The position numbers were made by a program, and so were the translations under genes. A model generated the notes under the pieces. The model did no database searches and was not told where the DNA came from. It was given only the letters and a program-made list of their open reading frames with translations. Shown here piece by piece: positions 3,487-58,144 of a stretch of 64,000 bases of DNA. Position 1 is the stretch's first letter. Each line of letters opens with the position of its first letter. This DNA comes from a virus, in the IMG/VR virus record IMGVR_UViG_3300009514_000888, positions 64,001 through 128,000 of that record; one strand, given 5' to 3'.

Positions 3487-4045
3487 AGATTGCGAATCTT
3501 GTAGACGGTCTTGGGCCTGGCGCATTCAAGGGCGGTCGTCCGCAAAAAGACCCATTCGAATTTAAGCTTCCTGGAGATAAAAACCCAAAGGGCGAGCAGT
3601 TTTCCTGTCCCGCGTGCGGTCGCGATTGCGAAACAGGAGAAATATGCCAATTTTGTAATGTCGCCTGTGAGGGAAGCGGAGAATCTAAGCCATTAAAGCC
3701 AGATGATCCTGGTTCGCAGAAAAATCCTTGGGATCAATATATCCTGGCCCCGCAAGTGCAAAGAGGGGCAGAAGTTATTTTTGATAGCCGTTCTGGTAAG
3801 TTTACAACTTCTCAGATAGACCCTGACGCTGCCTTGATGCGGCGTATGAGAAAAAAGCGCAAGGGTTATCCTCTGGATTTGCCTGATTTGCCGCAAATTA
3901 GACCTCATAAATCAGATACGAAGTATATGCTTGATCCCTCATCAACTCATGGGAAAAAAGTCGATAGAAGACCTGCGACGGAAGAGGAAGCCGATCATGC
4001 CTGCAAATGCTTGGCTATCGATGGCTAAGGAGAAGAATATAACCG

Positions 4046-7000
4046 ATGAAATTGATTCTTCCAGATACCTCCCCGCAAGGGAGGAGACGAAAAGTAGCTG
4101 CGACAGGAGCTATTAGCGCTTCATCTCCAGCAACAGGACATTCGACGGGTTACGCCCGTAGCGTGTCTAGTCTTACTCCTATCACTAAGACATCTCAGTT
4201 TACCGGCTCTGGGGCAAATACCATTTTTACCCAGCCGATGTTTTTCTCCCCATTGCATACCCCGCAGAACTGGCAGATCGCGTCAAAAAGAAGAGAGATT
4301 TATCAATGGAGCTTTATTGATAATGATATAAATCCTTGTTACTTAACGCTTAAGAGCGGACAGCAAAAAAGAATATCTTCCTTTTATACAGATAGCACAT
4401 ATGCTACTTCTTCATATATAACCGATTTGAATCAAGATTATGTGGTTCTGGATGGGCATGGAAATCTCAATAGACCTGACAAAGTATCAAAAAGGTGGGT
4501 ATCTAAGAAGGCCAACAAAATAAAGGCAGTGGGACTACCTGAGTCGCTTGTGGTCACAAGTGATCACAAGTGTAGGGTGATCAAAAGGGCGGATTTACGC
4601 TGCAAGTACCATTCTAGAAAAAATTGTGTTCATGGACACTGTGCTCCAACATGCACAAGATTTAATTGTGATCTGTATAAGAATGTAAGTTATAAAATAT
4701 CAAATGTTTTGGCTTCTGAAATAGAGGTTGGGGACTACATATTGCAGCCTTTCCCAACAGATATTATTGACAGTTGCATTTCTTCGATAGATGAGGCTAG
4801 GTTTGCTGGGCACCTGGGTGCCGATGGCTGGTATTGCAATGGAGATAATGAGACTGGATATAAGGCAGTTGGTGTTTGTATGTCCGTTGATGAAAAAGAG
4901 TATGTAGGAGGTACGGTCGATGCTATTTTCGACCAATACGGAGGATCGGATTGTGAGTATTATAACAATAAAAGCAAAACATTGACAGCGAAGCGCACTT
5001 CTAATGTAAAGACAGTTAAATTTGCTGATAAAATTCTTAAGGGCAAGGGGTCAAAAAAGCGCTTTACAGAACAGGTCACTTTGCTTGATCCTATTTTGCA
5101 AAAGCATGTACTAGGAGCCTATATACAATCTGATGGTTCATACAACAAAGCAAATGATGTTTTTGAGATTACTTCTTATTCTCCGCATCTGGCTAATCAG
5201 TTGTTGATAATGTGCTACAGATGCGGAATTTTGGCTCGTGTGCATAAGCAGCCAATTAGTCGTTCGACAAAAACATTCAAAACCGACAATCAGTATCGTT
5301 ATATACTTTGTATTCCATCATCGGAATGCCGTAAGATATCTGAATACGTTCCTGGAAAATCTTCCAATTTGTCGATCAGAAAAAAGGGGTCTTCATGGAG
5401 ATTTTTTTGGGGTAATAATGTTGTTACCAGAGTTTCGTCAAACGAAGAATTTGATTACGAGGGATTTGTCTACGACATAAGGGTTCCTCCTTCTTTTACT
5501 GTATGCGCCAACGGCGTTTCCGTTCATCAGTGCCGCTTCTATTATGAAAACGAGCCAAAGGTTGCTGCGGGCGTTGACTTCTATTGCTTCGATCCAAAAA
5601 CTCCAGTTTTAATGGCAGATGGATCGCAGAAAGCTATTGAGTCAATTTCGGTAGGCGATGCAGTTCGATCACACGATGGGAGCGTGGGCGCTGTAGAAGA
5701 AGTACATCGCCGACAAGCGGAAGAGCCTATCTATTGTATCCATATTTCTGGGGTTAATAACGGAACTCTTAAAGCAACAGGCGGGCACCGTATCCTTGTA
5801 TCTAGAAAGGAAAAAATTCAATGGATGAATGTTTGCGACTTGAAGAAGGGAGACTTCCTGTTAGCCCCATGTAATTATGAGTCGGTTATTGATGAGTCTG
5901 GAATACGTGATACTCCATACTTTGTTAATGGTAAGTATATTTATCGTCAAGTGTTGTCTGTAAAAAAGAAGCCCTACAAAGGCGATGTATATGACTTAAC
6001 AGTTCACGGGGCGCATACTTACGTGGCAAATAGGGTCGCTGTTCACAATTCGACATTCGCAATGAATGGCTTTAAGTTAGAGTGCAAATCCCAGGATGTT
6101 CTTGAATACTTTGAGCAGCTTATAGAAGATATCGATTTGGCCGATTGGCTGCAACACATCAGCCATGAATATTATCTACTTGGCGATGTTTTTCCGTTCT
6201 TGGAAATTGAGTGCCCAACGTGCAAAGGAAAGGGCGTGGACCCGAAGACCAGGGATCGTTGCAGCCATCCTGGAGGAACATTCCGGTCCATCCGCTTGAT
6301 GAATCCCGATTATATAGAAGTCCAAGACAATGTTTTGGCTGATCATCCTGTGATCGCAATGATGCCGGATGAAGAATTGAGAATGATTATTGCTCGTCGT
6401 CAGCCAAAAGAGATATATGAGAAATTGCCTCAAGAACTGGTTGACCTGGTTGCCACAGGACGACCCATTCCGCTGTCTCCGAGAAGCGTTAGCCATCTCA
6501 AGTTCAATGGCTCTGCCTACGGAACATACGGCACCTCCATGCTGCGCCGTTTGTTTACGATTCTTGCCTATAAAACCAAGATTATGACGGCCAATTGGAT
6601 CGTCGCCGAAAGGATGATCCTGCCTGTTCGCGTTGTCAAGGTTGGAGACAAAGATCGTCCAGCCAGCGAAGACGATTTGCAGGATGTTGCAAATCAGTTG
6701 GCAGCAGTTGTCAATGATCCGAACTTGACAATTATTACTCACCACGCATTTGAATACATGTGGCATGGTGCGACTGGCAAAATTCATAATATTAGCGCTG
6801 AACTTGAAGAAGTTGGTAAAGAAATTCTTGATGGGCTTATGTTGAACCAGGCTATTCTAAACGGGGAGGCAGCAGGATATAATAGTGCGCAGGTTGGCGT
6901 TGAAGTTATGATACGCCGTCTCGAGAATTGGCGCAATAAACTAGCGAAGTGGGTTCAGAATCACATCTTCAAGCCCATCGCTATGATGCAGGGATTTTTA

Positions 7001-9390: not shown

Positions 9391-12300
9391 ATGAGTTTAA
9401 CAAAGACGGCTACGTCTAACAATTGTTCTATCCATCCCCTCAATAACCCAGGTTGGGATATATACAAGTTGCCAGAGATGGTCAAGATGGCTTCGCTTGA
9501 AAAATCGAAGGGCGAAGACCTCGGTGGTTTCGATCTCGGCGCAGCTGTAAAAGATCACCCAGATAACCTTTTCGTCAAGATTTTCGCCATCAAAGAAGAT
9601 GAAGTCAACGACAATGGCGACTACTTTTCAGCAGAAGAATTAGAGAAATCAGCTGGTACATTTGTTGGCGTTCCAGTATTCACCAATCACCAAAATGACG
9701 ACATCGAACGCGCCAGGGGCGAATGCGTCCACGCATGGTATGACAAGGATGCGCAGGGCATTTTCATTATTGCCAGAGTTGATAAGATCGCTTATCCGAA
9801 ATTAGCCCGAGGCATAGAAGAACAAATCATTAAATCAACCTCAATGGGCGCGTCACGCGGCCATGATCTCGTTACCATGTCCGACTATTCGTATAAGCGG
9901 GTAGACGAATTAAAAATAGGAGATCAGGTTATTACTCATACGGGAAGGACAGAGAGTGTCCATGCCCTTTGCAGAACCCAAGAACATGACGAATTATATC
10001 ACATTAAATGGAATGGCAAGAAATCTGGTCTTGCCCTAAGCCATGAACATCCCGTTCTGATACTTAGGCATGATGATCTTCATTTGGCGCAGCCAACTGG
10101 GGAAAGATGCAGAAAGACTCCGCTAGAGATCAATGAAAACATAAAGCCTGCATTCGTTGAAGCAAGCCAGGTTAGAGAAGGGGATTATGTTCTCGAGATT
10201 ATTGATGGGCCTAGGTCTGATATAGACACCGAGATAGGTAGAGTCGCCTTGAATACAGGGGCTCCAGTCACGCTTTCTGGGCATGATGTCGTTGCCTTGA
10301 CATCTACCGTCATGGACCCTGACGCCGAGTATACGGGACATCATTTTGCTATTTCTGATCCATTGTCAGCATTTTCATACAAAGTAAAGCTAAATAAGCG
10401 ATCCAAAAGACTTAAATTTGACTCATTCTTTTATGACAAATATATTGCTCACAGGGTAGAATCTGTAGATAAGATTAGGAATACAGAACCTACTTATTAT
10501 GTGCAGATAGGGGAGATAGATGATACCGAAAGTGATCATAGCTATATTCTAAACGATATTGCTACTCACAACTGCTCGGTGGAGGGCAGTGTGTGCTCTA
10601 TTTGCCATAATTACTCTACGACAGCTGATTCGTATTGCACGCATATTAGAAATCAAAAAACAAGAAAAACATCAACGACCTGCAAATGCAAATATCACGA
10701 AAGCGCAGATTTAGATGGCAGTAAAAAAGATGAGCCTTGCCCTGTTTGCGGCGCTACCAAGAGTGACTCGAAGCAACTCAAGCACTCTGATCAGGAAGTC
10801 TTTGAATACAACTACGGGCTGAAGTTCATCGAGAACTCGTTCGTGGTCAATCCTGCGTGCCATACCTGCGGCGTTGCATGTATTCTCAATGAACCAGAGA
10901 TAAACAAGAAAGTTGCTTTCCTTCAGGAGCGCATTCAGAAACTTTCTCATGATTTCAATAAGGGAATTAAACTCGGGAAAAATGCTGGGCGAGAAGAATT
11001 AGATGCCCTTCAGGAAGCAATGAACAATATCGAAAAAGTATCCAAGTCTATGTTGGCCCAAAAAGACCAAGTAGACCTGGAATTCGTCAGCGATCTCGTC
11101 AAACTCATGTCTGACTTACAGGATACAACTGACGAACTTATGGAGATGGGATATGCGCAACTCCCGTCTCCTCCAGACTTTGTGACTGGGTCGGGGGTAG
11201 AGGGCGATGTTACATTTCCTGATCCAACTGCGGGTATCCCGCAGCCTGCGCAGCAGATGGGGCCGCCACCGGCGACTCAAACGACTCAGACTCCGTCTGC
11301 GACCCAGACTGACATTATAGGCGGCCTAGGTTCGGTAACTAAGCCTGCAATGTCAACGTTAGTCAATCAAAAGAAGGAGTTTATAAGAACTTCTTCGAAT
11401 CTGGGTAAAAAGATTTCTGCGCTAGCAAGGCGCATAAACAATCTGGCAAGGAGCAGCACTGTGTCCGATGCCCATACGCATGTTTGGGATGATGGGAGTG
11501 ACCCATCTTCCCGCAATGTATTAATAGACGAAACCTATATCACAGAGTCCCAGGGGGATACGGTGCTGCGGGTTTCTGCCATTTCTGAATTACCCACTGA
11601 TCTTCAAAAGATGATTAGGTCGAATCCCCAAGAAGCGGGGAGACGTGTCCTTGCGAGCTATAAGGAGTCTGGATATACCATGAAAGATAACTCAACTGAG
11701 AAGACCGCTGCTGTCGGGCCGTTCGGCAAGGATAGCGCGTCCCAGCAAGAGGTCATTACTGAAAAGCAGTTGCGCAACGAACCTCCTGACCTGCACCCTC
11801 GCTGGGGCGATACCTATGAGCAGATTACTGAGTCCAATGAGCAACTTGGACGCAGCGATGATAAGATGCATGATACCACTTCTGATTCCCCGCAAAAAAG
11901 ACTGGGAACTTATGAAACAATCACTGAGGACCAGCTAAAGGTCGTTACTGATGGTCATATTGTGCGCGCCAATGACTGGCCCGAAGTTGTGACTGAAAAG
12001 CAATGGACTGATATGGCTCGCCTCGTCAGCGCTGAACTACCAGACGACTGGACAGAGCGTATCACCGAAGCACAAATCCGCGATCTTCTGGATCATCACA
12101 GGTTCGTCGGACCTTATGAAACTATTACCGAAGATCAGCTTAAGAATCAGGACTGGGGCATCAAGCGATGGGCCAGCGCGACTTATACACAACAGCTGGC
12201 GAAGGTTGCTGTGAATGCCATCTCTGATGCGATTGCTCGCTTTAATAAGACTCCAGAAGAGATCGACAGGGTAGCGTCATATGTGAATGATAACCCCGTT

Positions 12301-15300: not shown

Positions 15301-16125
15301 GGCCAGGCAGAAACTAATGCCGCCTCCGAAGAGCAACTTCGCAAAGAAGCAGAAGAAAAGGTATTGAATGAAGTTGCCCGCATGAGAGGACTCGGCGGAA
15401 ACACAAAGTCCAGTATCGATTCTCTGGTTGATCGTTTGCTGGCCAATGCCGAAAAACCGCTCAAGCAAGCAGACTTCGGAAAATTAAAGGCCCCTAAGCC
15501 TGTTGCAGATGATAAGGATATCCAGCCAGTCGATGGCGGCGGCAAGGGTATCGCGCATGAACCGAATTTCTCGGCGGATACGCCGACGAATACCGAGGGA
15601 GGCAAGACCACATCCCTGATGGGACATGAGCGAGAATCGCTCGGTGGCGCTCCCAAATCCCCCGCCGATCATCCTACGGTCCCTGCTGATAATCAGCTGA
15701 TGGGTCATGAGGAAGGCGGCGAGGTTGGACCTGAAAAAGGTAGAGAAAACAAGGGTACCGTCATCGCAGGAGACGATGGTGCGTCCGAGGCTCGTACGAA
15801 ACTCGCAACAACCGTTGCGGCTGAAATGATGCAGTCCGGCCTGATCAAGGTCAATGAACTGCATAGTAAAATTGTTGAACTCAGCAAGTATGAGCCTGCC
15901 CAGATTCAAGACATTCGTAAGGCAATGTTTTCAGGGCGTAAAGGACTCGACACGGTATCGGACGGGCTCGAGCGGCCTGTAATCATCAATGAAGCTAGTA
16001 ATCAGAGAGATGGTAATCATGAACTCTCTGAAAAGCTCCAATCGATGTTTACCCTTTCAAAGCGAACAGAAGAGGCTTTGAAAGACCCAGATTTCGCTCT
16101 CAAATATGCTCATAGAGTGTTTTGA
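9391..16125 (+). CDS. Prohead maturation protease fused to a very long scaffold-like region; contains one intein (2003 aa after splicing)
   Basis: N-terminal NDNGDYF/PVFTNH/STSMG|C..CSIC pattern of HK97/assemblin-fold proteases, followed by acidic low-complexity and coiled regions; directly upstream of decoration and capsid genes. Confidence 0.78.
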   Translation: MSLTKTATSNNCSIHPLNNPGWDIYKLPEMVKMASLEKSKGEDLGGFDLGAAVKDHPDNLFVKIFAIKEDEVNDNGDYFSAEELEKSAGTFVGVPVFTNHQNDDIERARGECVHAWYDKDAQGIFIIARVDKIAYPKLARGIEEQIIKSTSMGASRGHDLVTMSDYSYKRVDELKIGDQVITHTGRTESVHALCRTQEHDELYHIKWNGKKSGLALSHEHPVLILRHDDLHLAQPTGERCRKTPLEINENIKPAFVEASQVREGDYVLEIIDGPRSDIDTEIGRVALNTGAPVTLSGHDVVALTSTVMDPDAEYTGHHFAISDPLSAFSYKVKLNKRSKRLKFDSFFYDKYIAHRVESVDKIRNTEPTYYVQIGEIDDTESDHSYILNDIATHNCSVEGSVCSICHNYSTTADSYCTHIRNQKTRKTSTTCKCKYHESADLDGSKKDEPCPVCGATKSDSKQLKHSDQEVFEYNYGLKFIENSFVVNPACHTCGVACILNEPEINKKVAFLQERIQKLSHDFNKGIKLGKNAGREELDALQEAMNNIEKVSKSMLAQKDQVDLEFVSDLVKLMSDLQDTTDELMEMGYAQLPSPPDFVTGSGVEGDVTFPDPTAGIPQPAQQMGPPPATQTTQTPSATQTDIIGGLGSVTKPAMSTLVNQKKEFIRTSSNLGKKISALARRINNLARSSTVSDAHTHVWDDGSDPSSRNVLIDETYITESQGDTVLRVSAISELPTDLQKMIRSNPQEAGRRVLASYKESGYTMKDNSTEKTAAVGPFGKDSASQQEVITEKQLRNEPPDLHPRWGDTYEQITESNEQLGRSDDKMHDTTSDSPQKRLGTYETITEDQLKVVTDGHIVRANDWPEVVTEKQWTDMARLVSAELPDDWTERITEAQIRDLLDHHRFVGPYETITEDQLKNQDWGIKRWASATYTQQLAKVAVNAISDAIARFNKTPEEIDRVASYVNDNPVNTSKIAFLTLINALPFKKKAREKLARNVAYFQKRASKSAEMPNALDALIISIANHAHHGLRAEDVYEAIARSLNNKKAMAKVDSLVQTKLASVPGMEDEILDKFSAIDRAFDMVDRPEDGKWQVKATVKEVLASANKEARTNKAKFIQAAHEFALDQIGPELDKKAGVLLEIEVQDGTVSVTEGDSGMGLEGPDELLEDFDMELLGDEGDLGDGLGGDLGDDEKDMGGMAGTGGMAGTGGGAGMSYMASQNARSKITKQAQLMGGEMGGQGGAAQAPGAGATLPQPPMGEAPPMESFTGQDDELGGESHDLSPKPPGSICPVCGSEDVDVAEGGSRCANCGSDFSVKVNLEVNDWANLTSTEDNLESGELGGEDEGMGFEMPEGGGAGAPEMPIAAMTRISPEALQKVAKMAEAIKGTSEESWGKFSKLVSDGGYGLSQKMAESYATKQEVKLGSISPLTGNDNTVHMGGNEYVCLATGTKYTVDFATNTKKPEHVYAQWAYTPRYASAICPSCNRARKRFASQLKAFGVKEDQFDAMNPYEKAKTIVAMKKAGVLKEIKTADKIGTVLQDYKKAYGVFGNGDKFPMESCRHKLARKWGENSLAISGPCEGQPIHECVCNQLKNAGIYSDQVAIKLASVWSGADGFEDCVTDQVRSRLSLREAAVVCSALKTALANDEEFLGDSLGDDMGGDLGGDDMSAVGDELGGDELGDDFDPFDGGMEGGDLGGGMVTLELSEDVAKELDANLDAALGSDPTDDLGEGESLGEAAPGLEGGEGLDAGGDLGVGGSNIDELDMLDENACKPCHDAKPMMGGNNMVPTAGKKDKNEGKNVDEFVNNELKEPGDLKGVETKKSSDSVQHKEASHMRSSFSRTGQVEMDLLSVARKLGLSKESGEKEIQQELVQDSGDIGSYSAGDPLGSDLPSAMGHETESVSTAEHPSVPRGEALMGHESDNIDKSEPLPHIPSDKGTMGHEDEVGLSGGDVRFTGGYGAGGAGSPGAGQAETNAASEEQLRKEAEEKVLNEVARMRGLGGNTKSSIDSLVDRLLANAEKPLKQADFGKLKAPKPVADDKDIQPVDGGGKGIAHEPNFSADTPTNTEGGKTTSLMGHERESLGGAPKSPADHPTVPADNQLMGHEEGGEVGPEKGRENKGTVIAGDDGASEARTKLATTVAAEMMQSGLIKVNELHSKIVELSKYEPAQIQDIRKAMFSGRKGLDTVSDGLERPVIINEASNQRDGNHELSEKLQSMFTLSKRTEEALKDPDFALKYAHRVF
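9850..10572 (+). mobile_element. Ala1 intein in the prohead protease (241 aa, no intact endonuclease)
   Basis: ASRGHDLVTMSDYSYKRVDELKIGDQVITHTG aligns residue-for-residue to block A with Ala in place of Cys1; SHEH block B; THN|C terminus. Confidence 0.85.
11752..12141 (+). repeat. Six (I/V)TExxx peptide repeats in the scaffold region
   Basis: VITEKQL, YEQITESNEQL, YETITEDQL, VVTEKQW, RITEAQI, YETITEDQL. Confidence 0.8.
15076..15711 (+). repeat. Five MGHE peptide repeats (plus one IAHE) in the scaffold region
   Basis: MGHE codons start at 15076, 15142, 15211, 15619 and 15700. Confidence 0.85.
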
Positions 16126-16147
16126 GCAAAGCTAGGAGAAAGTACAA

Positions 16148-16738
16148 ATGGCTCTCATTGAGATTTACCATGTAGTTGCTGACTTCTTCGATGTTAACCC
16201 CCTCGCCGATTGGACGGCAACTGAAGGGCAATGGGGTTCCCTCGTCGAACAAGGCGGCAAAACCTATGTCGAACCAGCCGGTGCGACTTCAAACGTTATG
16301 GGTTGCTTAGGCGACTCGCGTTTGACCAATACCGCTGGCACGCCATATGCAGCCGATCTGATCATTGGCGCTCACCAGCCCAATCCCACGACTGGCAAGT
16401 CCCGTTCAACCCAGAACCGTGTAAGCGATAGCTTTGACGAAACTCTTGCCTCCGGCAAGATGACCGTCTATCACGGCGGCGGAAAGTTCGCGACTGACCA
16501 GTTCGAAACGTTGACTGGCGGCAACCCAATCGATTACAACCCAGGACAAGCCCTCTATGTTAGCGCTAATGCTAACCTGACTAACGTCGGAACGAGCGGC
16601 ACAAACCCGCGAGTTGGCTTCCTCGTTGAAGGTCCGAAAGACTTCCCAAGCGGAGTCCCAGGTACCGATACGCCGGATGGCTCGCTCTCTCTGGGCAGTT
16701 ATGTCACCTTTGTGATGGACATCCAGAATCCCGACTAA
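16148..16738 (+). CDS. Putative head decoration/cement protein
   Basis: 196-aa G/T/P-rich ORF between protease-scaffold and capsid; AGGAG RBS; assignment by synteny. Confidence 0.55.
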   Translation: MALIEIYHVVADFFDVNPLADWTATEGQWGSLVEQGGKTYVEPAGATSNVMGCLGDSRLTNTAGTPYAADLIIGAHQPNPTTGKSRSTQNRVSDSFDETLASGKMTVYHGGGKFATDQFETLTGGNPIDYNPGQALYVSANANLTNVGTSGTNPRVGFLVEGPKDFPSGVPGTDTPDGSLSLGSYVTFVMDIQNPD

Positions 16739-16835
16739 TTTGTAATAATTAGATTCGGACTAAAAAAAGAATCATCAAATTGCTCCTTGAGGTTTGGAAA
16801 CGAATATTCAAGGGTAATTGATAGGAGAAAGACAA

Positions 16836-19800
16836 ATGAGTCTTGCTAAGAATGGTCTTTCAGACCAAGATAAGGAAATGGTTATTGCCCAAGCGCTGAA
16901 TACCGACGAAGGTCGCACAGCTCTTGCCCAGGCAATGGTAGAGCCTATCCGCCGCTCGCTTGAGTAGATTGATGCTCCTCGTATTGGCAACAATATGAGC
17001 AAACTCGGCTTATTTGCGTGAAACCTAAATCTGAAAAGATATGGTAATACGCAGGGAAGTCTAAAGGAAACTATGATAAACGCAATCTCAAAACCTAATT
17101 ACCAAGACGTTCGCAGTATGTATTGCGAGCAGGGGTATACGTTTGCAGAAATCGCAAATGAATACGAATGCAGCTCGTCTATGATTAGAAAGATTGCGAA
17201 AAGGCATAACATCCCCATTATGAGGGGAAGAAGTAAAACAAGAAAAGTTATTGTTCAAAAATCCAAAATATCACTAGCTCTAACAAGAAATGATATTGAA
17301 CGATTTGGAAACGCCTTCTCCAGACAAGCATATGAGATGTCTATGGGATCGCTCCTGGGAGATGCGTTTTTGAAGGTAAGGCAAAATAAGTATAATTCAA
17401 GGTATAATATTTATTTTGCCCATTCTGTTGATCAGAGGCATTACCTGGAATACAAGAGAGAATTTTTCTCTGATGAAGAAGCCAATGATATCAGAATCGA
17501 ATACAGGGACAATAATGATACTTATATCAAAGGGAAAAAAGTCAACCAGAAAGACTTGGTAGTTTTTTCAACCAAGTCATACAATTTAAGTAATCTTCAT
17601 AGAATGTTATATAAAAACAATGTTAAACGCATTACGATGGAATACTTGAAATTGCTTACTCCATTATCTTTGGCTACATGGTACATGGATGATGGCAGCT
17701 ATAATAAGCAAAATCGTTTGATTAGAATCGCTACAATGTGTTTCACTAATAAAGAAAATAACATACTCAAGGATTACTTCTATAACAGGTTGAAAATGCC
17801 ATGCTTTCTTGAAAAAGTTAATTGTGGACATGGTCGTTCAATTGTATTAACACAAAACTCTACAAGAAAGTTCTTGGCTCTTATATATCCTTATGCCTGC
17901 AAGATGATGCAATACAAGTTTCCTAATGACCCCTCAGAGACTCTGAAAGCTGTTACGACAGTGAGTAAGGAAGCGCTCGCAAGAGTCGCTTAATAGCGCT
18001 GGGCATCCGTATAACGGATGATGATATAGTCCAACCCTCAATGAAAATTGAGAATAGTTGATCAAGCGGTCGGACGTAAGCTGCTGATGGTGGATTAACC
18101 TAAAAAGCTTGTCCACCTAGAATCGCGAGATTCTATCAAAAAAACCAGACTCATATCGGGGAAACCTAAATCGAAAGATAAGGCAATCCCGAGGGAAGTT
18201 TAAGGAAAGTTCTTGAAGGTTCACAATGAGTAAGAAATACGAAATTAACACTGATAAAGTCATTTCTTCTTATATGGAGAAGAATATGACCATGAAAGAG
18301 ATAGCATCTCAATATGGATGTCATCGTAGTGTTATCGCTCGTATTCTTAGTATGGCTTACAAGAATAAGCTTTCTGATAACCCCGTAGAGACTTGCCCAG
18401 ATATGGGCAGAGTGTCAGTACTGAAATGTTCTGATGCTAATACGTCTGGCTCTTCCTCTTATTGGAAGATGATGGTATAGTCCACGGCTCCCGAAAGGGA
18501 TGACCGATTGGAGCTTCCACAAGGCGCTCTTGCTCGTTACGAGCGAGACGTTGCCTCCATCGCTCACGTCGTTTCTCGTCGCGGCGCAGTGCCCGACCAG
18601 ATCGTCGAAGGCGAAGAAATCCTCGTTCCTACTTTCGAAATCGCCGCGAACCCCACGGTTCGTCTTAGCGAAATCAAGGCACGCCGCTTAATGACGATTT
18701 AAGTAGAGGTGGCGTTAAATCCGACCAAATGCTGGAAACCCCTTAGAGCCTTGAATACCAAAGCGTAACAATTTCAAGGATTGGGCAATCAGCAGGAAAG
18801 AACCCGAAAGCATTATGAAACTTATAGAACAACAAGACAAGATAGTAAGAATGTATTTGGATGAAAAGAAATCCATTCGCGCTATTGCTAGACTTTTGGA
18901 TTGTTCTATGTCTGGGATCAAAAGTATTTTGCATAAAAATAATGTCAAGATGAGAAATAAGTGTGAATCTCTAAATTTGTGCCCAGATAGTTTCAGCGAG
19001 GAAGAATTTGATATTGTATTCGGAACTACGCTTGGAGATGGACATATCACCAAGAAGAGAGGACCGAAAGGCGAATGCCAACTATATGTTGGTCATGGCT
19101 TGAAGCAAAGCGATTACTTAAACTGGAAGTACCAGAAAATGTTGCGCTTTGTTTCCGGTATGCCATATGAGCTAAAGCATTACTTGAAATCGAATAAGAA
19201 GACCTATATAACATTGAACTTTATTACTAGAAAAAGTTCATTGTTTACAAAGATGAGAGAAGCCTTTTATCCAGAAGGAAAAAAGGTAATCCCCTGCGAT
19301 TTCGAAGATAAGATTAATGCAAAATCATTAGCTATTTGGTATATGGATGATGGATATAGGTATAAGAACAAAAACAATATCGAAATTCATACTCAATGCT
19401 TTACTCATGAAGATCAATTAAGAATATTGAAAATTCTTAAGAAGAAGTTTGGAATAGTATCTCACATAAGAACCCTTCCCACAAGAAAAGAGATTGTATT
19501 TATACCCTCTGCATCTTGCGGTAAGTTTCTACAAGTTGTGAATGATCATATTGTTCCAAGCATGAGATATAAAGGGTTATCCTCAGAGGCTATTACGTCG
19601 GACATGCTCCTAAAAAAGCATGAAGATAGAGTCCGTTCTGCCAGGAAACTGGTAGAGATAACCTAACGGTTATCTGCCCAAAGAATCCAGATATGGATCA
19701 TGGGTGCAAAAATAACATTAAGTTTACATCGTAGATAGAGCCCAGATTAAGGCCAAAGAAGCTATCCAGAAGGAAGAAGATACGAATATCTTTAATGCGC

Positions 19801-20252
19801 TGATCGCTGCCGCCGATACTCGCGGCGACCAGGTTGTGACGAACGTTGGTACCCTTACCATCGCTAGCCTCAATACTGCGTTCCGCTTGATTGAACAGCA
19901 CGACTTAGTGGCTGCGAAGATTGTCCTGCATGCCAACCAGTATGCTTCCGTAAGAACGTTCGGAAAAGATTTCTACGATGAGGCGACAACTCGAGAAATC
20001 ATCACGACAGGACTTTACGGACACCTGTGGACGGCTGACCTGCATGTTTCTTCCAGAATGGATTCAAATACTGTTCTGGTAGTAGCTTCCGCAGAGAATG
20101 TTGGCGCATTCCCAATCAGGCAGGATATTACTGTCCTTCCTGCTGACGATCCAAAGAAATTAAGATTGGGTTGGGTGATCTACGAGGAAGTAGGAATTGT
20201 TGTAGTCAACGACTACGCAATCTCCAAGATTGACGTTTCCGCTGCTACCTAA
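16836..20252 (+). CDS. Major capsid protein, spliced from 4 exons (16836-16965, 18061-18095, 18511-18688, 19723-20252), 290 aa
   Basis: Joining exons at U|...G| boundaries gives one continuous frame: MSLAKNG...EPIRRSLE-Y-QAVGRKLLMVD-ELPQG...EIKARR-F-YIVDRAQIKAKEAIQKEED...YEEVGIVVVNDYAISKIDVSAAT*; AGGAG RBS and downstream terminator. Confidence 0.9.
16966..18060 (+). mobile_element. Group I intron 1 in the capsid gene (1095 nt)
   Basis: P1 GAGU/GCUC with U.G at the splice site; P10 UUGAU/AUCAA; Q-like AAUACGCAG, R CAGAGACU, S GAUAUAGUCC; terminal G. Confidence 0.9.
17073..17993 (+). CDS. Intron-encoded LAGLIDADG homing endonuclease with N-terminal HTH
   Basis: MGSLLGDAF and LATWYMDDGS motifs; the 3' end overlaps intron element R. 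Confidence 0.88.
   Translation: MINAISKPNYQDVRSMYCEQGYTFAEIANEYECSSSMIRKIAKRHNIPIMRGRSKTRKVIVQKSKISLALTRNDIERFGNAFSRQAYEMSMGSLLGDAFLKVRQNKYNSRYNIYFAHSVDQRHYLEYKREFFSDEEANDIRIEYRDNNDTYIKGKKVNQKDLVVFSTKSYNLSNLHRMLYKNNVKRITMEYLKLLTPLSLATWYMDDGSYNKQNRLIRIATMCFTNKENNILKDYFYNRLKMPCFLEKVNCGHGRSIVLTQNSTRKFLALIYPYACKMMQYKFPNDPSETLKAVTTVSKEALARVA
18096..18510 (+). mobile_element. Group I intron 2 in the capsid gene (415 nt)
   Basis: P1 GGUGGAU/GUCCACC (18111-18117); Q AAUCCCGAG, R GUAGAGACU, S GGUAUAGUCC; terminal G. Confidence 0.9.
18226..18480 (+). pseudogene. Truncated homing-endonuclease remnant (HTH only) in intron 2
   Basis: MTMKEIASQYGCHRSVIARIL resembles the HTH of the intron 1 and 3 endonucleases; no nuclease motif; the frame runs into the intron core. 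Confidence 0.6.
18689..19722 (+). mobile_element. Group I intron 3 in the capsid gene (1034 nt)
   Basis: P1 ACGCCGCU/GGUGGCGU (18708-18715); Q AAUCAGCAG, R CAGAGGCU, S GAUAGAGUCC; terminal G. Confidence 0.9.
18815..19666 (+). CDS. Intron-encoded LAGLIDADG homing endonuclease with N-terminal HTH
   Basis: FGTTLGDGH and LAIWYMDDGY motifs. Confidence 0.88.
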   Translation: MKLIEQQDKIVRMYLDEKKSIRAIARLLDCSMSGIKSILHKNNVKMRNKCESLNLCPDSFSEEEFDIVFGTTLGDGHITKKRGPKGECQLYVGHGLKQSDYLNWKYQKMLRFVSGMPYELKHYLKSNKKTYITLNFITRKSSLFTKMREAFYPEGKKVIPCDFEDKINAKSLAIWYMDDGYRYKNKNNIEIHTQCFTHEDQLRILKILKKKFGIVSHIRTLPTRKEIVFIPSASCGKFLQVVNDHIVPSMRYKGLSSEAITSDMLLKKHEDRVRSARKLVEIT

Positions 20253-20278
20253 TAGACTTACGTAAAACTGAATACCTC

Positions 20279-20307
20279 AAAGCCCCCAAATTAGGGGGCT
20301 TTTTTTT
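20279..20307 (+). terminator. Intrinsic terminator after the capsid gene
   Basis: AAAGCCCCC-AAATTA-GGGGGCTTT followed by a T tract. Confidence 0.85.
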
Positions 20308-20356
20308 AACTCTTTCGTATATAACTTTTTTCCAAATATCTCTTTATATATAACTT

Positions 20357-21583
20357 TTGCTAAAGAGTAGTTGTGATTTAGTCGATGGTAGTGTTATGTC
20401 TAAGGCAGGTAAGATTAAGGTTCTTTTTCCCCATCTTTATCAGGAGCTAGATCGTTTTTCTAATAAGGGTATAGATTTGGATGGATTAACATCTGGCTCC
20501 AATGCATACGTTTGGTGGAGATGTGTCTATGGTCACTCTTGGAAAGCCCAGGTCTATAATCGTGTTAAGGGGACAGGATGCCCTTACTGCTCTGGAAATG
20601 CCATATCAGACAATAGTCTACAAAAGAAGCAACCTGACTTGGCTTCTCAATTCTGTAAGATCAAGAACGATCTGTCTCCAGACGAGATTTCTTTCTGTAG
20701 TAATAAGAAGGTTTGGTGGAAGTGTTCTAAGGCGGATGATCACGTTTGGAAGGCAACGCCCAATGATCGAAACAAAGCATCTGGGTGTCCTTTTTGTTCT
20801 GGTCGCCGAGCATCGAAAGATAATAATTTGCTAGATAAATACCCTGAAATTGCTAATCAATGGCATCCTACAAAAAATGGCGCATTAACACCCTCAGATT
20901 TGACGCCAGCTAGCGGGAAGAAAGTGTGGTGGAAGTGTAAGGTAGCTAGCGACCATGAGTGGCTTGCCTCTCCTAACACAAGAATCAATATGACAAACAG
21001 TTTAAGCTGTCCATTTTGCACAGGTCGCAAGGTGTGTAATTCGAATTGCCTGTCTACCACTCACGAGTTTTTACTAGATAGTTGGGATTTTAAGAAGAAT
21101 GAGATATCTCCTACAGAAATAACTTATTCTTCTCATAAAAAGATTTGGTGGATATGCGACAAGAAGCATAGTTGGTGTGCAAATGTATATAGTAGATCAG
21201 CAGGGAAGGGGTGCCAGCAATGCAATTTATCCAAAGGCGAGGCAAAGGTTGCTAAAGTTTTGTCTGACATGGGGATGTACTTCCAAAAAGAGTATAGATT
21301 TAAGAAATCCAAGATTCCCAGGAGAAAGTTTGATTTTGCGGTGTTTAATCAATCTATCCATTTGATAGAGTATCATGGGATTCAGCATTATGAGCCTGTT
21401 TCTTTTGGCTCTAAGACAGTTAAGGGGCAACAAACTCTAAAAAGAATTCAGCATAGGGATCAACTGAAGAGGGAATGGGTATTGGATAATGGTTATCCTC
21501 TTTTAGAGATACCCTATTGGGATTTTGATCAAATAGAACACTTAATAAGAGATTTTCTTTATGAGCGAAAGAAAGATTCATAA
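20357..21583 (+). CDS. Repeated zinc-ribbon protein with C-terminal PD-(D/E)XK-like endonuclease (free-standing HEG-like)
   Basis: Four to five WWKC..H.W.A....R...GCP.C repeats; FDFAV...LIEYHGIQHY terminus; start codon uncertain. Confidence 0.75.
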   Translation: MLKSSCDLVDGSVMSKAGKIKVLFPHLYQELDRFSNKGIDLDGLTSGSNAYVWWRCVYGHSWKAQVYNRVKGTGCPYCSGNAISDNSLQKKQPDLASQFCKIKNDLSPDEISFCSNKKVWWKCSKADDHVWKATPNDRNKASGCPFCSGRRASKDNNLLDKYPEIANQWHPTKNGALTPSDLTPASGKKVWWKCKVASDHEWLASPNTRINMTNSLSCPFCTGRKVCNSNCLSTTHEFLLDSWDFKKNEISPTEITYSSHKKIWWICDKKHSWCANVYSRSAGKGCQQCNLSKGEAKVAKVLSDMGMYFQKEYRFKKSKIPRRKFDFAVFNQSIHLIEYHGIQHYEPVSFGSKTVKGQQTLKRIQHRDQLKREWVLDNGYPLLEIPYWDFDQIEHLIRDFLYERKKDS

Positions 21584-23255
21584 CTACGAGTCTGTCATCT
21601 TGGTAGAAAAAACAATCCAAGATGAAGGATATAACCCGAACAAACTGGGAAGAACATCTAGGAAGTTCATATGGGCATCTTGCCGTGTATGCGGGGAATC
21701 TCATCGCATTCGTAAGGGATTCTATAATAAGGCAGGATCGGCATGTCATAAAGAGTGTAGGATGCAGGAACAGTCCCAATTCGGCTCTCCTTTTTCTGAT
21801 CCAAAGGTGAAAAAGAAAGCTCAGGAGAATAGGACCAGGAACATATCTCAAAAAGAATTGAACAGACGCATATCTATAGGCCGGAAAAAGGCTCAGTCTA
21901 AGATAGAAGAAACCAACATGCAGAAGTATGGTGTCAGAAATACATTCCAATCTGGAGAAATTAAGGAGAAGATAAAAAAGACTAATTTGGATAGGTATGG
22001 GGTGGCTCATCCTATGCAGTCAGAGGATATTGCGTCCAGGGCGAAGGGAACAGTTAGAGAAAAGTATGGGGTTGACAATGTAATGCAATCCGAGCCGATA
22101 CGGTCTAAGGCAATTGAAACCAATAAGCAGAGATATGGGGTTGCAAATCCTATGCAAGATAAGGATATCTCAGAGAAATCTAGAGCTGGATTTCAAACTG
22201 CTGTAGACGAAGACCTTAATGACAATTATCGACTTATCAATACTTTGAGAGGTGATGATTTTTGGAACAAAATGGCAGAAGAAGAGTTAACCCTTAAAGA
22301 GTTATGTGATTTTTTTGATATTAATTATCAAAGCGCAACTTATAGGCTTGTTCAAGATGAATTCAGAGACAAGTATCATAAAACATATCATTTTCCAAAG
22401 CACCAGGAGCAAATGAGCATATGTAGAATGATTGAGTCTTGCGGGGTAAAGGTGGATGCTAATACCAGGCAAGTTATACCTCCGCTGGAGATAGATATAT
22501 ATTGTCCTGAATCAAAGCTTGCTATTGAATTCAATGGAAGCTATTGGCATTCTGAGGCTTTTTTAGACAGTAGTCAATCAAGGCATAAGCATATAGAGAA
22601 AACCAGAATGTGCAGGGAGAAGGGGATAGAGCTGATTCATGTATTTGAGCATACTTATAGAGAGCGTAAAGATCAAATATTAGGATTCATTCAATCCGCC
22701 CTTGGATCAAATACGGTTAGAATTCATGCTAGAAAATGTAATATTACTCACAATGATTCTTCATGGTTTATGAACAAACATCATGTTCAGGGATCGACCA
22801 AGAGCATTAAGTATTTTAATCTTGAATATGATGGAGAGATAGTTGGGTCTATGACTGCGGGCAAGCATCATGAAAAGGGGGGAGACAGGATGGCATGCGT
22901 ATTAAATAGACTAGCTTTCAAGAGAGGTGTTACTATTCAGGGAGGATCAGGTAGGTTATTCAAATACTTTAGGCAATGGGCCAAAGGAGAGGGATATGAT
23001 CAGATCATTAGTTGGTCAGATTCATCCTTAACCAGTGGCAAGGTATACAATACATTGGGATTTAATATGGAGGTTGAGCATGCCCCTGGATATTTCTATT
23101 TTGACATGAAAAATGGCCGATATTTGAGTCGTCAGTCTCAAAGAAAAACCAATAAGTTGAGGCCAGATGGCGTGACTATTAGAGAATGGAATAGAGCGAG
23201 AGGATTATATCCAATATGGGATTGCGGAAAGAAAAAGTGGACATATCATCTTTAG
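21561..23255 (+). CDS. Hef-like free-standing endonuclease with KYGV repeats
   Basis: Repeated KYGV/RYGV units; EIDIYCPESKLAIEFNGSYWHS nuclease motif; C-terminal ARKC...WDCG domain. Confidence 0.7.
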   Translation: MSERKIHNYESVILVEKTIQDEGYNPNKLGRTSRKFIWASCRVCGESHRIRKGFYNKAGSACHKECRMQEQSQFGSPFSDPKVKKKAQENRTRNISQKELNRRISIGRKKAQSKIEETNMQKYGVRNTFQSGEIKEKIKKTNLDRYGVAHPMQSEDIASRAKGTVREKYGVDNVMQSEPIRSKAIETNKQRYGVANPMQDKDISEKSRAGFQTAVDEDLNDNYRLINTLRGDDFWNKMAEEELTLKELCDFFDINYQSATYRLVQDEFRDKYHKTYHFPKHQEQMSICRMIESCGVKVDANTRQVIPPLEIDIYCPESKLAIEFNGSYWHSEAFLDSSQSRHKHIEKTRMCREKGIELIHVFEHTYRERKDQILGFIQSALGSNTVRIHARKCNITHNDSSWFMNKHHVQGSTKSIKYFNLEYDGEIVGSMTAGKHHEKGGDRMACVLNRLAFKRGVTIQGGSGRLFKYFRQWAKGEGYDQIISWSDSSLTSGKVYNTLGFNMEVEHAPGYFYFDMKNGRYLSRQSQRKTNKLRPDGVTIREWNRARGLYPIWDCGKKKWTYHL

Positions 23256-55565: not shown

Positions 55566-56847
55566 ATACAATTGGGGTATTCTAACAGATACAGATGTTG
55601 AACTTATCATGGAATCTCTGTCTATGCTCGTCGAAAGATTTGGACGGGAAGAAACCCTGAAAGTCATGGAGGTTGGCGTCTGTCGCGGCAAGACCAGCCG
55701 AGGTATCAAGCATGAACTCGACAGACTGAGGGCAGTATATGAATATTGGGCCGTGGATTCAGGCGCAGGTATGGCAGGCAATGTGCTGCCGCCATTTGAG
55801 GGATGTAGGCTAGTGATTGGGAACTCGGAGGAATCATATATGGAGTTCCCTGATGATCTGCATTGGGTTTTTATTGATGGATGTCATTGTATTAATCATG
55901 TTATGTTGGATATACTGCATTATGCTCCCAAAGTTAGAGATGGCGGATTGATTGTTTTGCATGACACTAGCCCGCTTGCACAGGCTTGTAATCGACATCC
56001 GCCAGACTATCAAAAGCATGGACCCAGACATGCCGATTTTGGGACGGCTATTTTAGCGGCATTTGACAAATTGGACGTAGAGCATCGCCGAGATATGCAA
56101 TTGGTTCGATCTGCTCAAGACGAAGATGCATGTTGGGGAGGGGTATCGGTATTTAAGAAGGTCAAGAACCCAGAGGGAGCTCCGGTATATAGGGGCAAGG
56201 AGGGGCAGGACCGTTGGGCGATGGAGGTGCTGGGATATAAGCGCAATGGATACTTTGTGGATATTGGAGCACACAATGGGTACAACGATAGCAACTCCTA
56301 TGTCATGGAAAAATACTTCGACTGGGAAGGCATTTGCGTAGAGCCTAATACATATACCGAGGGCGAATTGCGCAAATATCGAAATTGCCATATCGAAACA
56401 TCATGTATTTCTGATGTCAATGGAGAAGTCGATTTTGTGCAGAGAGGGAGAAGAAAACAAGTCTCAGGTATTTATCATCCGGACGCCGACGAACATGTAC
56501 TTAGTCCGGTTGACCAATATAAACATCCACTCATCAAAAAGCCGTCGCTTACGCTAATCGCCCTATTGAAGAAATATCAGGCTCCCAGAATTATTGATTA
56601 TCTCAGCGTTGATGTGGAGGGCGCAGAACACCTGATACTCCAGGGGTTCGACTTCTCCAGATACAAGTTCTTGACTTTAACGATTGAACACAATTATTTT
56701 GAGGGCAATGGCTTTCCAAAGAAGAACCTCCAAAGAAGGCAGAAGGTGCAAGATACCCTTTTGTCCAATGGGTATCATCTGAATAAAACAGTAGTTGCCG
56801 ATGATTGGTTCTCGGTTTGGGAAGGACAGTCAACTACCCTCAGCTAA
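55552..56847 (+). CDS. Two-domain methyltransferase (Methyltransf_24-like + FkbM-like); stop codon supplied by the IsrB element
   Basis: MEVGV, FIDGCH, LHDT; FVDIGAHNG, GICVEPN, YLSVDVEGAE. Confidence 0.85.
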   Translation: MAHNKYNWGILTDTDVELIMESLSMLVERFGREETLKVMEVGVCRGKTSRGIKHELDRLRAVYEYWAVDSGAGMAGNVLPPFEGCRLVIGNSEESYMEFPDDLHWVFIDGCHCINHVMLDILHYAPKVRDGGLIVLHDTSPLAQACNRHPPDYQKHGPRHADFGTAILAAFDKLDVEHRRDMQLVRSAQDEDACWGGVSVFKKVKNPEGAPVYRGKEGQDRWAMEVLGYKRNGYFVDIGAHNGYNDSNSYVMEKYFDWEGICVEPNTYTEGELRKYRNCHIETSCISDVNGEVDFVQRGRRKQVSGIYHPDADEHVLSPVDQYKHPLIKKPSLTLIALLKKYQAPRIIDYLSVDVEGAEHLILQGFDFSRYKFLTLTIEHNYFEGNGFPKKNLQRRQKVQDTLLSNGYHLNKTVVADDWFSVWEGQSTTLS

Positions 56848-57127
56848 AGCACGAGGGCTTGTCAGAGAGAGCTGACATCTTGAAAGATTCGTAGAATCTT
56901 TCAAGAGTTGACTAGACTAAGCAGAAAGGAGTGTTCTCCTAATATGCTACGTTAAGAGAGCTACAAGTACCAAGGGATGCCGCCCTAGTCCCCTGCTCTA
57001 CGCTAGACCTCTTTAATAGCACGTTTCCTGCAAAAGCAGGAAACTAAGCTCTCTTAACATTGTCGAAGGGCAATATACACAGGTTCCCAGTCCTGGCTTA
57101 CCGCATTAAAACTGGAACAAAAACACT
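56829..57127 (+). ncRNA. Putative omegaRNA scaffold
   Basis: ~300-nt ORF-free stretch with multiple hairpins between the element end and the PLMP start. Confidence 0.7.
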
Positions 57128-58144
57128 ATGTTCATGCCAGTAGTTCATTCTGATCAGCAGCCCTTGATGCCAACAACGTCGAGCAGGGCGAGGCGTTGGA
57201 TGGCTCAAGGCAGGGCTACTGGATTCTACAAGAAAGGAGTATTCTGTGTTCGACTCAACGTAACTCCATCAGACACCAAAACCCAGACAATCGCTGTAGG
57301 CATCGATCCAGGATCAAAGCGAGAAGCTTACACAGTTAAATCGCAATCTCATACATACCTCAATCTGCTGTCTGACGCAGTAGATTGGGTGAAGGAAGCA
57401 GTAGAACAACGCCGTAACATGCGACGAGCAAGACGCTCCAGGAAAACCAGATATCGAATTGCCAGATTCAATAACAGAAAAAAGAGCAAGATTGCGCCTT
57501 CCACGAAATCCAGGTGGCACCTGAAACTTAGAATCTGTGATTTATTGTCACAGATATTCCCTGTATCACAGTTCGTTGTTGAAGACATCAAAGCTAAAAC
57601 AACTGGTAAAAAGCGCTGGGACACCAGTTTCTCCCCTCTTGAAGTAGGCAAGCAGTGGTTTTATGAGCAGCTGAGTAGTTTTGCTCATGTTGTGACCAGA
57701 CAGGGATATGAGACAAAAGCGTTGAGAGACGAACTGGGACTCAAGAAGTCGAGTTCTAAGTTAGCTGACAAGTTTGAGTGTCACAATGTAGACAGTTGGG
57801 TTCTTGCGAATGCCGCCGTTGGCGGTCATTCGCATCCGGACAACAAGAGGATACATAGGCTACATCTGATCAGGTTGCACAGGAGACAGTTGCATGCGTT
57901 TCAGCATGGTAAGGGCGGCGTTCGCCGCCCTTACGGAGGGACGCGTAGTTTGGGATTTAAGCGAGGAAGCTTCGTACAGCACAAGAGGAGAGGAGTATGC
58001 TTTGTAGGCGGGACGAGCAAGGACAGGGTCAGTTTGCATTGTATGCAAACTGGCAAGCGTTTAACGCAATCAGCTGAAGTTGTTGATTGCAGATTTTTGA
58101 GTTATTCTAGTTGGAGAGTAGGCATCGTTTCCTCCCCACACTAA
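57128..58144 (+). CDS. isrB: IsrB RNA-guided nickase
   Basis: PLMP, GIDPG (RuvC-I), Arg-rich bridge helix, VVEDI (RuvC-II), HNVD (RuvC-III); 338 aa, no HNH. Confidence 0.85.
   Translation: MFMPVVHSDQQPLMPTTSSRARRWMAQGRATGFYKKGVFCVRLNVTPSDTKTQTIAVGIDPGSKREAYTVKSQSHTYLNLLSDAVDWVKEAVEQRRNMRRARRSRKTRYRIARFNNRKKSKIAPSTKSRWHLKLRICDLLSQIFPVSQFVVEDIKAKTTGKKRWDTSFSPLEVGKQWFYEQLSSFAHVVTRQGYETKALRDELGLKKSSSKLADKFECHNVDSWVLANAAVGGHSHPDNKRIHRLHLIRLHRRQLHAFQHGKGGVRRPYGGTRSLGFKRGSFVQHKRRGVCFVGGTSKDRVSLHCMQTGKRLTQSAEVVDCRFLSYSSWRVGIVSSPH

Follow-up and report, generated by a model that had tools for sequence, protein, structure and literature searches.

The window analysed here, a stretch of 64,000 nucleotides (nt), corresponds to bases 64001-128000 of the 186,298-bp virus record IMGVR_UViG_3300009514_000888 in IMG/VR. 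Completeness of the record was rated by CheckV at about 39%, and the genome should thus extend to several hundred kb. On the plus strand of the window, positions 16836-20252 hold a 3417-nt gene for a major capsid protein that is divided into four exons and three introns (Table 1). A listing of open reading frames (ORFs) over this interval contains only capsid-like fragments of 49, 64 and 138 amino acids (aa), which alternate with two ORFs of about 300 aa and one of 84 aa in AT-richer DNA; G+C content is 32-39% in the ORF-bearing inserts versus about 50% around exons 3 and 4, and 36-40% when measured over the introns. Exon borders were set from translation and from comparison with relatives. 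The exons of 130, 35, 178 and 530 nt sum to 873 nt, and the spliced frame encodes 290 aa followed by a stop codon, confirming to the base an initial annotation of this DNA in which only 873 of the 3417 nt were assigned to four exons. That ORF callers miss the gene, as the same annotation stated, was also borne out: the public gene call on the record is a 121-aa C-terminal fragment equivalent to capsid residues 170-290.

Reconstruction of the capsid protein

Exons 1, 3 and 4 were collinear on the PHROG 2522 'major head protein' profile, and the gap between exon 1 and exon 3 on this profile equals the 12 codons of exon 2, the micro-exon. Exon 4 shares 49% identity with gp27 of Bacillus phage G and, used alone, matched the gp27 capsid chain (PDB 6wkk_A) with an E value of 1.4e-48. 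A query of a protein collection with exon 4 returned about 1000 relatives; most of the best 120, which were examined, are uninterrupted proteins of 286-296 aa. The spliced product aligned without gaps to 109 uninterrupted homologues at 79-95% identity, in agreement with the earlier statement that splicing restores a single 290-aa frame. The closest homologue, P0001 (95% identical, uninterrupted), matched 6wkk_A over residues 7-284 (E 1.3e-94). Phage G-type capsids have been named HK97-style (PMC12484599), and the HK97 fold of 6WKK is taken here from the literature. At the junctions the invariant peptides RRSLE-YQAVGRKLLMVD-ELPQGA and ARR-FYIVDRAQ are restored (hyphens here and below mark splice junctions), and the exon 2 peptide YQAVGRKLLMVD is unchanged in the 109 homologues. 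Two uninterrupted genes, in contigs L088 and L089, are exactly 873 nt long and align with the joined exons over every base, about 77% of which are identical; the capsid gene of the window therefore contains no additional small insert. Judged by these matches, the gene product is, as had been assigned at the outset, a major capsid protein; it has the HK97 fold and belongs to the phage G gp27 family (PHROG 2522).

The terminator-like hairpin 27 nt past the capsid stop codon is the sole such site on the plus strand within 16000-20600, which fits a single primary transcript over all exons. Read in the frame of the preceding exon, intron 1 has a TAG that overlaps the 5' splice site, intron 2 a TAA directly after it and intron 3 a stop four codons into the intron. 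Stop codons near the 5' splice site are a feature discussed for bacterial group I introns (PMC3984707).

Table 1. Features of the window, in window coordinates (P1-P10, intron helices).
Feature	Position	Strand	Basis or description
Portal ORF, 1330 aa	4046-8038	+	Portal_Mu match, residues 804-1027
Protease-scaffold ORF, 2244 aa	9391-16125	+	insert at about 9850-10572
196-aa ORF directly upstream of the capsid gene	16148-16738	+	without Pfam or PHROG match
Ribosome-binding site AGGAGA, 7 nt upstream of the capsid ATG	16823-16828	+	read from sequence
Exon 1, 130 nt	16836-16965	+	codons 1-43 and first base of codon 44, final base U; PHROG 2522 major head protein, profile positions 38-72; gap-free alignment
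Intron 1, group I, 1095 nt, 36% GC	16966-18060	+	IA2-like architecture (P2, P7.1, P7.2); RF00028, helix check, core motifs
Intron 1 helices	P2 16978-16999; P3 17004-17009/17998-18003; P4 17015-17019/17049-17053; P7 17939-17942/18028-18031; P8 18004-18020; P9 18037-18052	+	helix check
Intron 1 guide UUGAUGCUC	16969-16977		pairs with ligated junction GAGU-AUCAA; P1 GAGU/GCUC, P10 AUCAA/UUGAU
Intron 1 RF00028 matches	16956-17192; 17782-18053		27.3 bits, E 4e-4; 38.5 bits, E 1.8e-7
Intron 1 ORF, 306-aa homing endonuclease, N-terminal helix-turn-helix	17073-17993	+	Pfam LAGLIDADG_2, PHROG 11023, translation
Exon 2, 35-nt micro-exon	18061-18095	+	last two bases of codon 44 to codon 55, peptide YQAVGRKLLMVD; alignment to homologues
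Intron 2, group I, 415 nt	18096-18510	+	architecture as intron 1; RF00028, minimum free energy fold, helix check, L085 orthologue
Intron 2 helices	P2 18118-18135; P3 18145-18150/18444-18449; P4 18157-18160/18188-18191; P7 18390-18393/18479-18482; P7.1 18395-18408; P8 18452-18468; P9 18490-18499	+	helix check
Intron 2 guide AAGCUUGUCCACC	18105-18117		pairs with junction GGUGGAU-GAGCUU; P1 GGUGGAU/GUCCACC, P10 GAGCUU/AAGCUU
Intron 2 RF00028 match	18086-18503		27.2 bits, E 4.3e-4
Intron 2 ORF, 84 aa	18226-18480	+	weak PHROG helix-turn-helix/endonuclease N-terminal matches
Exon 3, 178 nt	18511-18688	+	codons 56-114 and first base of codon 115; PHROG 2522 positions 87-145, E 1.3e-8
Intron 3, group I, 1034 nt	18689-19722	+	architecture other than that of introns 1 and 2; RF00028, helix check, L086 orthologue
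Intron 3 helices	P3 18721-18725/19597-19601; P4 18731-18735/18789-18793; P5a 18749-18779; P6 18794-18797/19580-19583; P7 19588-19591/19630-19633; P8 19603-19622; P9 19638-19655; P9.1 19656-19675	+	helix check
Intron 3 guide GUAGAGGUGGCGU	18703-18715		pairs with junction ACGCCGCU-UUUAC; P1 ACGCCGCU/GGUGGCGU, P10 UUUAC/GUAGA
Intron 3 RF00028 match	19534-19655		34.3 bits, E 3.4e-6
Intron 3 ORF, 283-aa homing endonuclease, N-terminal helix-turn-helix	18815-19666	+	Pfam LAGLIDADG_2
Exon 4, 530 nt with stop	19723-20252	+	last two bases of codon 115 to codon 290; PHROG 2522 positions 149-315, E 2.3e-34
Intrinsic terminator-like hairpin and U-run	20279-20302	+	27 nt past the capsid stop; terminator scan
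Free-standing homing-endonuclease-like gene	20357-21583	+	four DUF4379 treble-clef zinc fingers; PHROG 559/9084
Free-standing homing-endonuclease-like gene	21561-23255	+	DUF7487 and MTES_1575-like domain; PHROG 3339, E 1.9e-103
HEARO RNA	56829-57078	+	Rfam RF02033, 111 bits, above cut-off
338-aa RRXRR-domain ORF, directly after HEARO RNA	57128-58144	+	Pfam PF14239, E 1.8e-38

Group I intron structure and intron-encoded proteins

The junctions used to test the splice bases had been set separately, from alignments of protein and DNA sequences to uninterrupted alleles. At these junctions all three 5' exons end in T and all three inserts end in G (18060, 18510 and 19722). The P1 pairs are standard in each intron and the final pair is U.G; P10 directly adjoins P1 with five, six and five pairs in introns 1, 2 and 3, and the guides pair contiguously across the ligated junctions over 9, 13 and 13 positions, respectively. 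By our own arithmetic, the joint chance of such contiguous pairing at junctions fixed by homology is about 1e-10. R-type (AGAGACU or AGAGGCU) and S-type (AUAGUCC or AGAGUCC) core elements are present in each intron. The U.G-closed P1, P10, R- and S-type elements and terminal G that had been reported for each intron in the initial annotation were thus all located. Helices P2-P9 were located intron by intron and their pairings verified by script, with 100% standard pairs everywhere except in P7.2 of intron 1.

Introns 1 and 2 share a common architecture with P2, P7.1 and P7.2 and with hairpins capped by GNRA or UNCG loops. Their P4-P6 segments are nearly identical, while identity overall is only about 50-59%; a search of viral contigs with the shared P4-P6 pattern gave no matches. 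Intron 3 is of a different type, without P2, P7.1 or P7.2 and with P5a, P9.1 and P9.2. For intron 2, an unconstrained minimum free energy fold of the intron and its flanks recovered P1, P2, the 300-nt-range P3, P4/P5, P7.1, P7.2 and P8, with a z-score of -6.6 and none of 100 shuffled sequences equally stable. The 3' end of exon 2 reads GAT in the window versus GAC in eight intron-free alleles, so that a synonymous GAC/GAT change accounts for the U at this splice site. A 22-nt pattern from P9 of intron 2 had a single match, in an unrelated GC-rich coding region without a capsid gene or RF00028 match, and was put down to coincidence. A 16-nt core pattern from intron 3 matched at least 119 viral contigs, 16 of which passed a crude filter for group I-like motifs; this suggests that the intron 3 core type is widespread among phage contigs.

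The DNA was also compared with the Rfam group I covariance model (RF00028, gathering score 50 bits). At gathering thresholds, Rfam found no group I intron in the whole window, its single match being the HEARO RNA elsewhere, and the introns showed up only in a permissive search. A search of the whole 186-kb record gave only four RF00028 matches at E <= 0.01 (E 2e-9 to 4.5e-6), and all four lie inside the three inserts; their scores remain below the cut-off. The matches in each insert are broken up by an internal ORF of 0.25-0.9 kb, the same situation as has been reported for introns of Bastillevirinae (PMC11878797). Other classes of insert were considered as well. Inteins were ruled out by the in-frame stops at or near each 5' splice site, and group II introns by the permissive Rfam search, which gave no such match; a regular-expression scan of the window for further cores was dropped, being too crude to recover introns 2 and 3.

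Each intron contains an ORF, the start of which lies beyond the 5' strand of P6. In introns 1 and 3 this ORF encodes a LAGLIDADG_2 domain (PF03161), with scores of 104.7 bits (E 6.8e-30) and 121.1 bits (E 6e-35), respectively, against a cut-off of 25. Both enzymes have two LAGLIDADG motifs whose acidic residues are preserved (..SLLGDAF.. and ..WYMDDGS.. in intron 1, ..TTLGDGH.. and ..WYMDDGY.. in intron 3). The two enzymes are 24% identical to each other (E 2e-15), and the only relatives found for the intron 3 endonuclease are 25-38% identical to it. At its 3' end the intron 1 ORF runs over P6', P7, P7.1 and P7.2, and the intron 3 ORF over P6' through P9.1. The ORF of intron 2 had no Pfam match and no LAGLIDADG domain; over 33 aa it is 42% identical to the N-terminal end of the enzyme encoded by intron 1 (E 3e-5), and it is read as a decayed homing endonuclease gene of which a helix-turn-helix remnant is left.

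Intron mobility and alternative readings

Alleles from samples other than that of the window were used for comparison, L085 being an ENA assembly and L086 and L087 Logan assemblies. In L086 and L087 the codon occupied by intron 3 holds an ORF-less intron, which scored 86.8 bits with RF00028 (E 3e-21), above the 50-bit cut-off. Between L086 and intron 3 of the window, two positions of P1 co-vary with synonymous exon changes (ACGCCGCU/GGUGGCGU in the window versus ACGUCGGU/GCUGACGU in L086), P3 differs by two double changes (CCGAC/GUCGG versus CCCGC/GCGGG), and the P8 and P9 hairpins are kept with different sequences, compensatory changes and GNRA loops. L085 contains an orthologue of intron 2 that ends at the same base and has compensatory changes in P7.1 and P8; its 3' part is 85.8% identical to that of the window, compared with 75.4% for the adjoining exons. 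Covariation thus supports the helices of introns 2 and 3.

Presence of the introns varies among alleles. L085 has the intron 2 type and lacks intron 3, L086 and L087 have both an intron at the intron 2 site and the intron 3 type, and the uninterrupted genes of L088, L089 and 70-odd viral contigs have none of the three introns. The distribution of each intron is therefore independent of the others and of the gene that hosts it, a pattern expected of mobile elements. The sites occupied in the capsid family, codons 43/44, 55/56 and 114/115, lie at the 92nd, 78th and 94th conservation percentile in 14-residue windows of the family, and insertion into conserved sites is the usual preference of homing elements (PMC12908238). 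Judging from these sites, the endonuclease genes, the independent variation and the inteins and endonucleases nearby, the introns behave as selfish elements. The capsid gene appears to be a repeated intron target in this clade.

In the ORF-less intron 3 orthologue of L086 (1131-1430) and also of L087, a clear P1 and P10 predict an in-frame junction CGG UU-C UAU (RRFYI); the last base of the intron would then be U rather than G, and the nearest upstream G would add five codons (LTINI). Further inserts were noted in other capsid alleles. L058 and L059 (about 3925-5000) and L078 (about 3776-5006) have an insert of about 1.2 kb near codon 33, with a two-motif LAGLIDADG ORF of about 300 aa and of another type (..GFFEGEGS.., ..GIIDAEGT..). 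R/S-like motifs were seen by eye in its flanks, but RF00028 gave no match there with E values allowed up to 5. The two capsid pieces of L058 and of L059 overlap (query residues 5-60 upstream, 34-290 downstream), and a partial duplication may also be involved. The short ENA contig L244 begins with AT-rich non-homologous sequence (1-150) ending in G directly before ILVPTF (codon about 91), and this possible insert near codon 90 may mark a further intron site. P0102 was rejected as evidence of another site, its sequence being cut by the contig end.

Taken together, the gene is very probably the capsid gene of an uncultured giant phage related to phage G, invaded independently at three of its most conserved sites by mobile group I introns. 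Transcription would yield one precursor of about 3.4 kb that ends at the terminator after the stop codon. Each guide would form P1 with the end of the upstream exon, placing the U.G pair at the cut, and P10 with the first bases of the downstream exon, and the ribozyme core is predicted to perform two guanosine-initiated transesterifications. Ligation of the four exons would then give the 873-nt frame and a normal 290-aa HK97-fold subunit, while ribosomes on unspliced RNA would be halted by the stops, all of which lie no more than four codons from a 5' splice site. We infer that splicing occurs, and that it is efficient and autocatalytic. The LAGLIDADG enzymes of introns 1 and 3, if active, presumably cut the intron-free capsid alleles of co-infecting relatives, after which repair would copy the intron in (homing); the intron-free junctions in L005-L016, L088 and L089 are candidate substrates. 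Intron 2 would have lost its endonuclease and persist as a splicing-competent passenger.

Several observations weigh against this interpretation. The four RF00028 matches in the window (E 1.8e-7 to 4.3e-4) score 38.5, 34.3, 27.3 and 27.2 bits, all below 50. P1 of intron 1 is only 4 bp long, no intron 1 homologue was found for covariation, and no close relative of the intron 1 endonuclease was found in viral contigs. Two of the ORFs, in introns 1 and 3, extend into core helices, and their translation could disturb folding. A 45-nt sequence spanning both exon 2 junctions (E1/E2/E3) had no matches in the metagenome contig collection, and a protein identical to the spliced product was looked for on record and not found. 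Finally, with only about 39% of the genome in the record, a second intact capsid gene may lie elsewhere.

The short P1 of intron 1 and the passage of two ORFs through core helices, together with an intron 2 that has no enzyme yet lies 35 nt from intron 1, would also suit a reading in which at least one intron is not autocatalytic in vivo and depends on its own LAGLIDADG maturase, a neighbour's protein or a host factor. Maturase function is known among the LAGLIDADG proteins that organellar group I introns encode, e.g. I-AniI and the bI3 maturase. We consider this unlikely, though deserving of some weight: all three introns have complete cores, peripheral hairpins with GNRA or UNCG caps and long guide pairings, and orthologues of introns 2 and 3 occur without a full ORF or beside different neighbours. 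As far as is known, phage group I introns examined to date splice by themselves in vitro.

It was also proposed in the initial annotation that three splicing events gate the synthesis of this late protein, and that variants could arise, or assembly be timed, through exon skipping or partial splicing. [quoted passage not shown] In the window, introns 1 and 2, which share one architecture and a near-identical P4-P6 segment, lie on either side of a 35-nt exon, and a product of exons 1 and 4 is in frame (219 aa). Yet a message lacking just exon 2 or just exon 3 would be out of frame and reach a stop at codon 44 or 59, and the in-frame double skip removes residues 44-114 (71 residues), among them the family's most conserved blocks. 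The same protein is made without any intron in most relatives, so no intron is needed for regulation; the introns, moreover, vary independently among alleles, and each guide is specific to its own junction. Delayed or gated capsid synthesis, or functional variants from exon skipping, is accordingly a very doubtful reading and the proposal found no support, although skipping may occur as a by-product, by analogy with Twort orf142 and Coxiella. Equally improbable is a programmed alternative splice, based on the two similar introns around the 35-nt exon together with intron 3, in which the introns would have been co-opted for a second product or for assembly timing in a giant capsid, the products being the in-frame 219-aa protein of exons 1 and 4 or deliberate N-terminal peptides of 43 or 58 aa. 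A weaker form of that idea would cast the capsid gene of this clade as a battleground on which co-infecting giant phages use intron endonucleases as weapons.

A dead or dying gene, in which at least one intron no longer splices, as in a pseudogene of a defective genome, or which is backed by a second intact capsid gene in the unseen 60%, would be in keeping with the incomplete record, the unmatched junction 45-mer and the already decayed ORF of intron 2. This is still harder to credit. The four exons are intact, without frameshift or stop, and the splice signals and cores are intact in all three introns. Protein identity to the 109 homologues is 79-95%, whereas the closest alleles share only about 77% of their nucleotides with the gene; the differences are therefore overwhelmingly synonymous. 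The gene also stands in a normal morphogenesis order (portal, protease-scaffold, decoration, capsid) with its own ribosome-binding site and terminator, and a search for a second capsid gene copy in the 186-kb record found none. Misassembly, which might be suspected in a metagenome record with inserts lower in GC than their flanks, has a negligible chance of having joined the inserts to the gene, since each insert's guide is complementary to this gene's own exon ends and orthologous introns lie at the same codons in independent assemblies (L085; L086 and L087).

Known systems and neighbouring elements

Every element of this arrangement has a precedent, and the initial annotation implied more rarity than there is: introns in capsid genes, phage genes with several introns and group I introns separated by micro-exons have all been published (PMC7886860, PMC3706429, PMC10136302, PMC11878797). 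As far as the cited accounts describe it, orf142 of phage Twort (Landthaler & Shub, 1999) is a tail tube gene with three group I introns, a 23-nt micro-exon and exon skipping (PMC10136302, PMC11878797). Both are late structural genes with three introns of group I, a pair of them similar, of IA2 type, close together and flanking a micro-exon whose length is not a multiple of three (35 nt here). They differ in the gene occupied, a capsid rather than a tail tube gene, in the structural type of intron 3, and in that splicing and skipping were shown experimentally for Twort, whereas here splicing is predicted from sequence. The Twort introns reportedly lack ORFs, while two of the three described here carry LAGLIDADG genes.

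In crAss-like phages (Delta and Zeta; cMAG OLRF01000054), group I introns divide the capsid gene into as many as five fragments (Yutin et al., 2021, PMC7886860). These, too, are uncultured phages with a split major capsid gene, intron endonuclease domains, a genome rich in inteins and other selfish elements, and an annotation defeated by them. They belong to another phage lineage and capsid family, however, and their introns were identified through protein domains, whereas splice sites, guides and ribozyme helices are given here at base resolution. Capsid-gene introns are also known from mycobacteriophage LittleE, where the intron is spliced efficiently, as judged by reverse transcription PCR and N-terminal sequencing, despite very high demand for capsid (PMC3706429), and from lactococcal phage Tuc2009 (Pope et al., 2013, PMC3706429). 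The group I-type character, the U at the exon end, the G at the intron end and a LAGLIDADG-like ORF are common to these cases and ours; LittleE and Tuc2009 are small siphoviruses with single introns, and the LittleE endonuclease is on the opposite strand, in contrast to three introns with same-strand ORFs in a giant phage. The huge gut Jug phages likewise have essential genes fragmented by dense group I introns, homing endonucleases and inteins, and metatranscriptome reads confirmed splicing for about half of their predicted introns (PMC12880540). Jug introns, from another clade, average about 206 nt, are mostly ORF-less and occupy terL, nrdD and DNA polymerase genes rather than capsid genes. 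The classical IA2 introns (T4 td, nrdB and nrdD; SPO1 and Bastille DNA polymerase) reside in genes of nucleotide and DNA metabolism and encode GIY-YIG or HNH enzymes (PMC3984707, PMC11878797), in contrast to the capsid gene and LAGLIDADG enzymes described here.

What is new is a phage G-like giant phage whose capsid gene has three group I introns, which adds such a phage to the viruses whose most highly expressed structural gene would depend on several ribozyme reactions. A phage G virion needs capsid protein in the order of thousands of copies, a demand that splicing could meet only if efficient. The exon map in Table 1 repairs the capsid annotation of the record; because the public call is a 121-aa fragment, the capsid marker used in giant-phage phylogeny and classification would be missed or truncated. 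Knowledge of how such introns work is unchanged by the finding. The capsid family gains and loses its introns independently of one another, which makes it usable as a natural system for studying homing, endonuclease decay and guide retargeting.

The whole morphogenesis block is colonised, with inteins and with free-standing endonuclease genes near the capsid introns. The portal ORF contains an intein (Hint/Intein_splicing at about residues 511-668, LAGLIDADG_3 at about 355-425), and at its C-terminus a nuclease-like DUF559/MTES_1575 domain (residues 1207-1275). Pfam found no domain in the 2244-aa protease-scaffold ORF. Its insert of about 240 aa (residues about 154-394) starts with Ala after SMG, ends THN-C and is absent from the 1979-aa homologue in L089; these features fit an intein. 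Both free-standing endonuclease-like genes directly follow the capsid terminator, and in L243 a DUF7487 gene likewise lies 3' of the capsid gene. The 196-aa ORF upstream of the capsid gene keeps its position in L058, L078, L088 and L089 (190-224 aa) and is, from this position, a candidate decoration protein; phage G has one beside gp27 (PMC12484599). Elsewhere in the window, the HEARO RNA and the RRXRR-domain ORF are, on their Rfam and Pfam matches, an RNA-guided nuclease module of the IscB/IsrB type within the phage.

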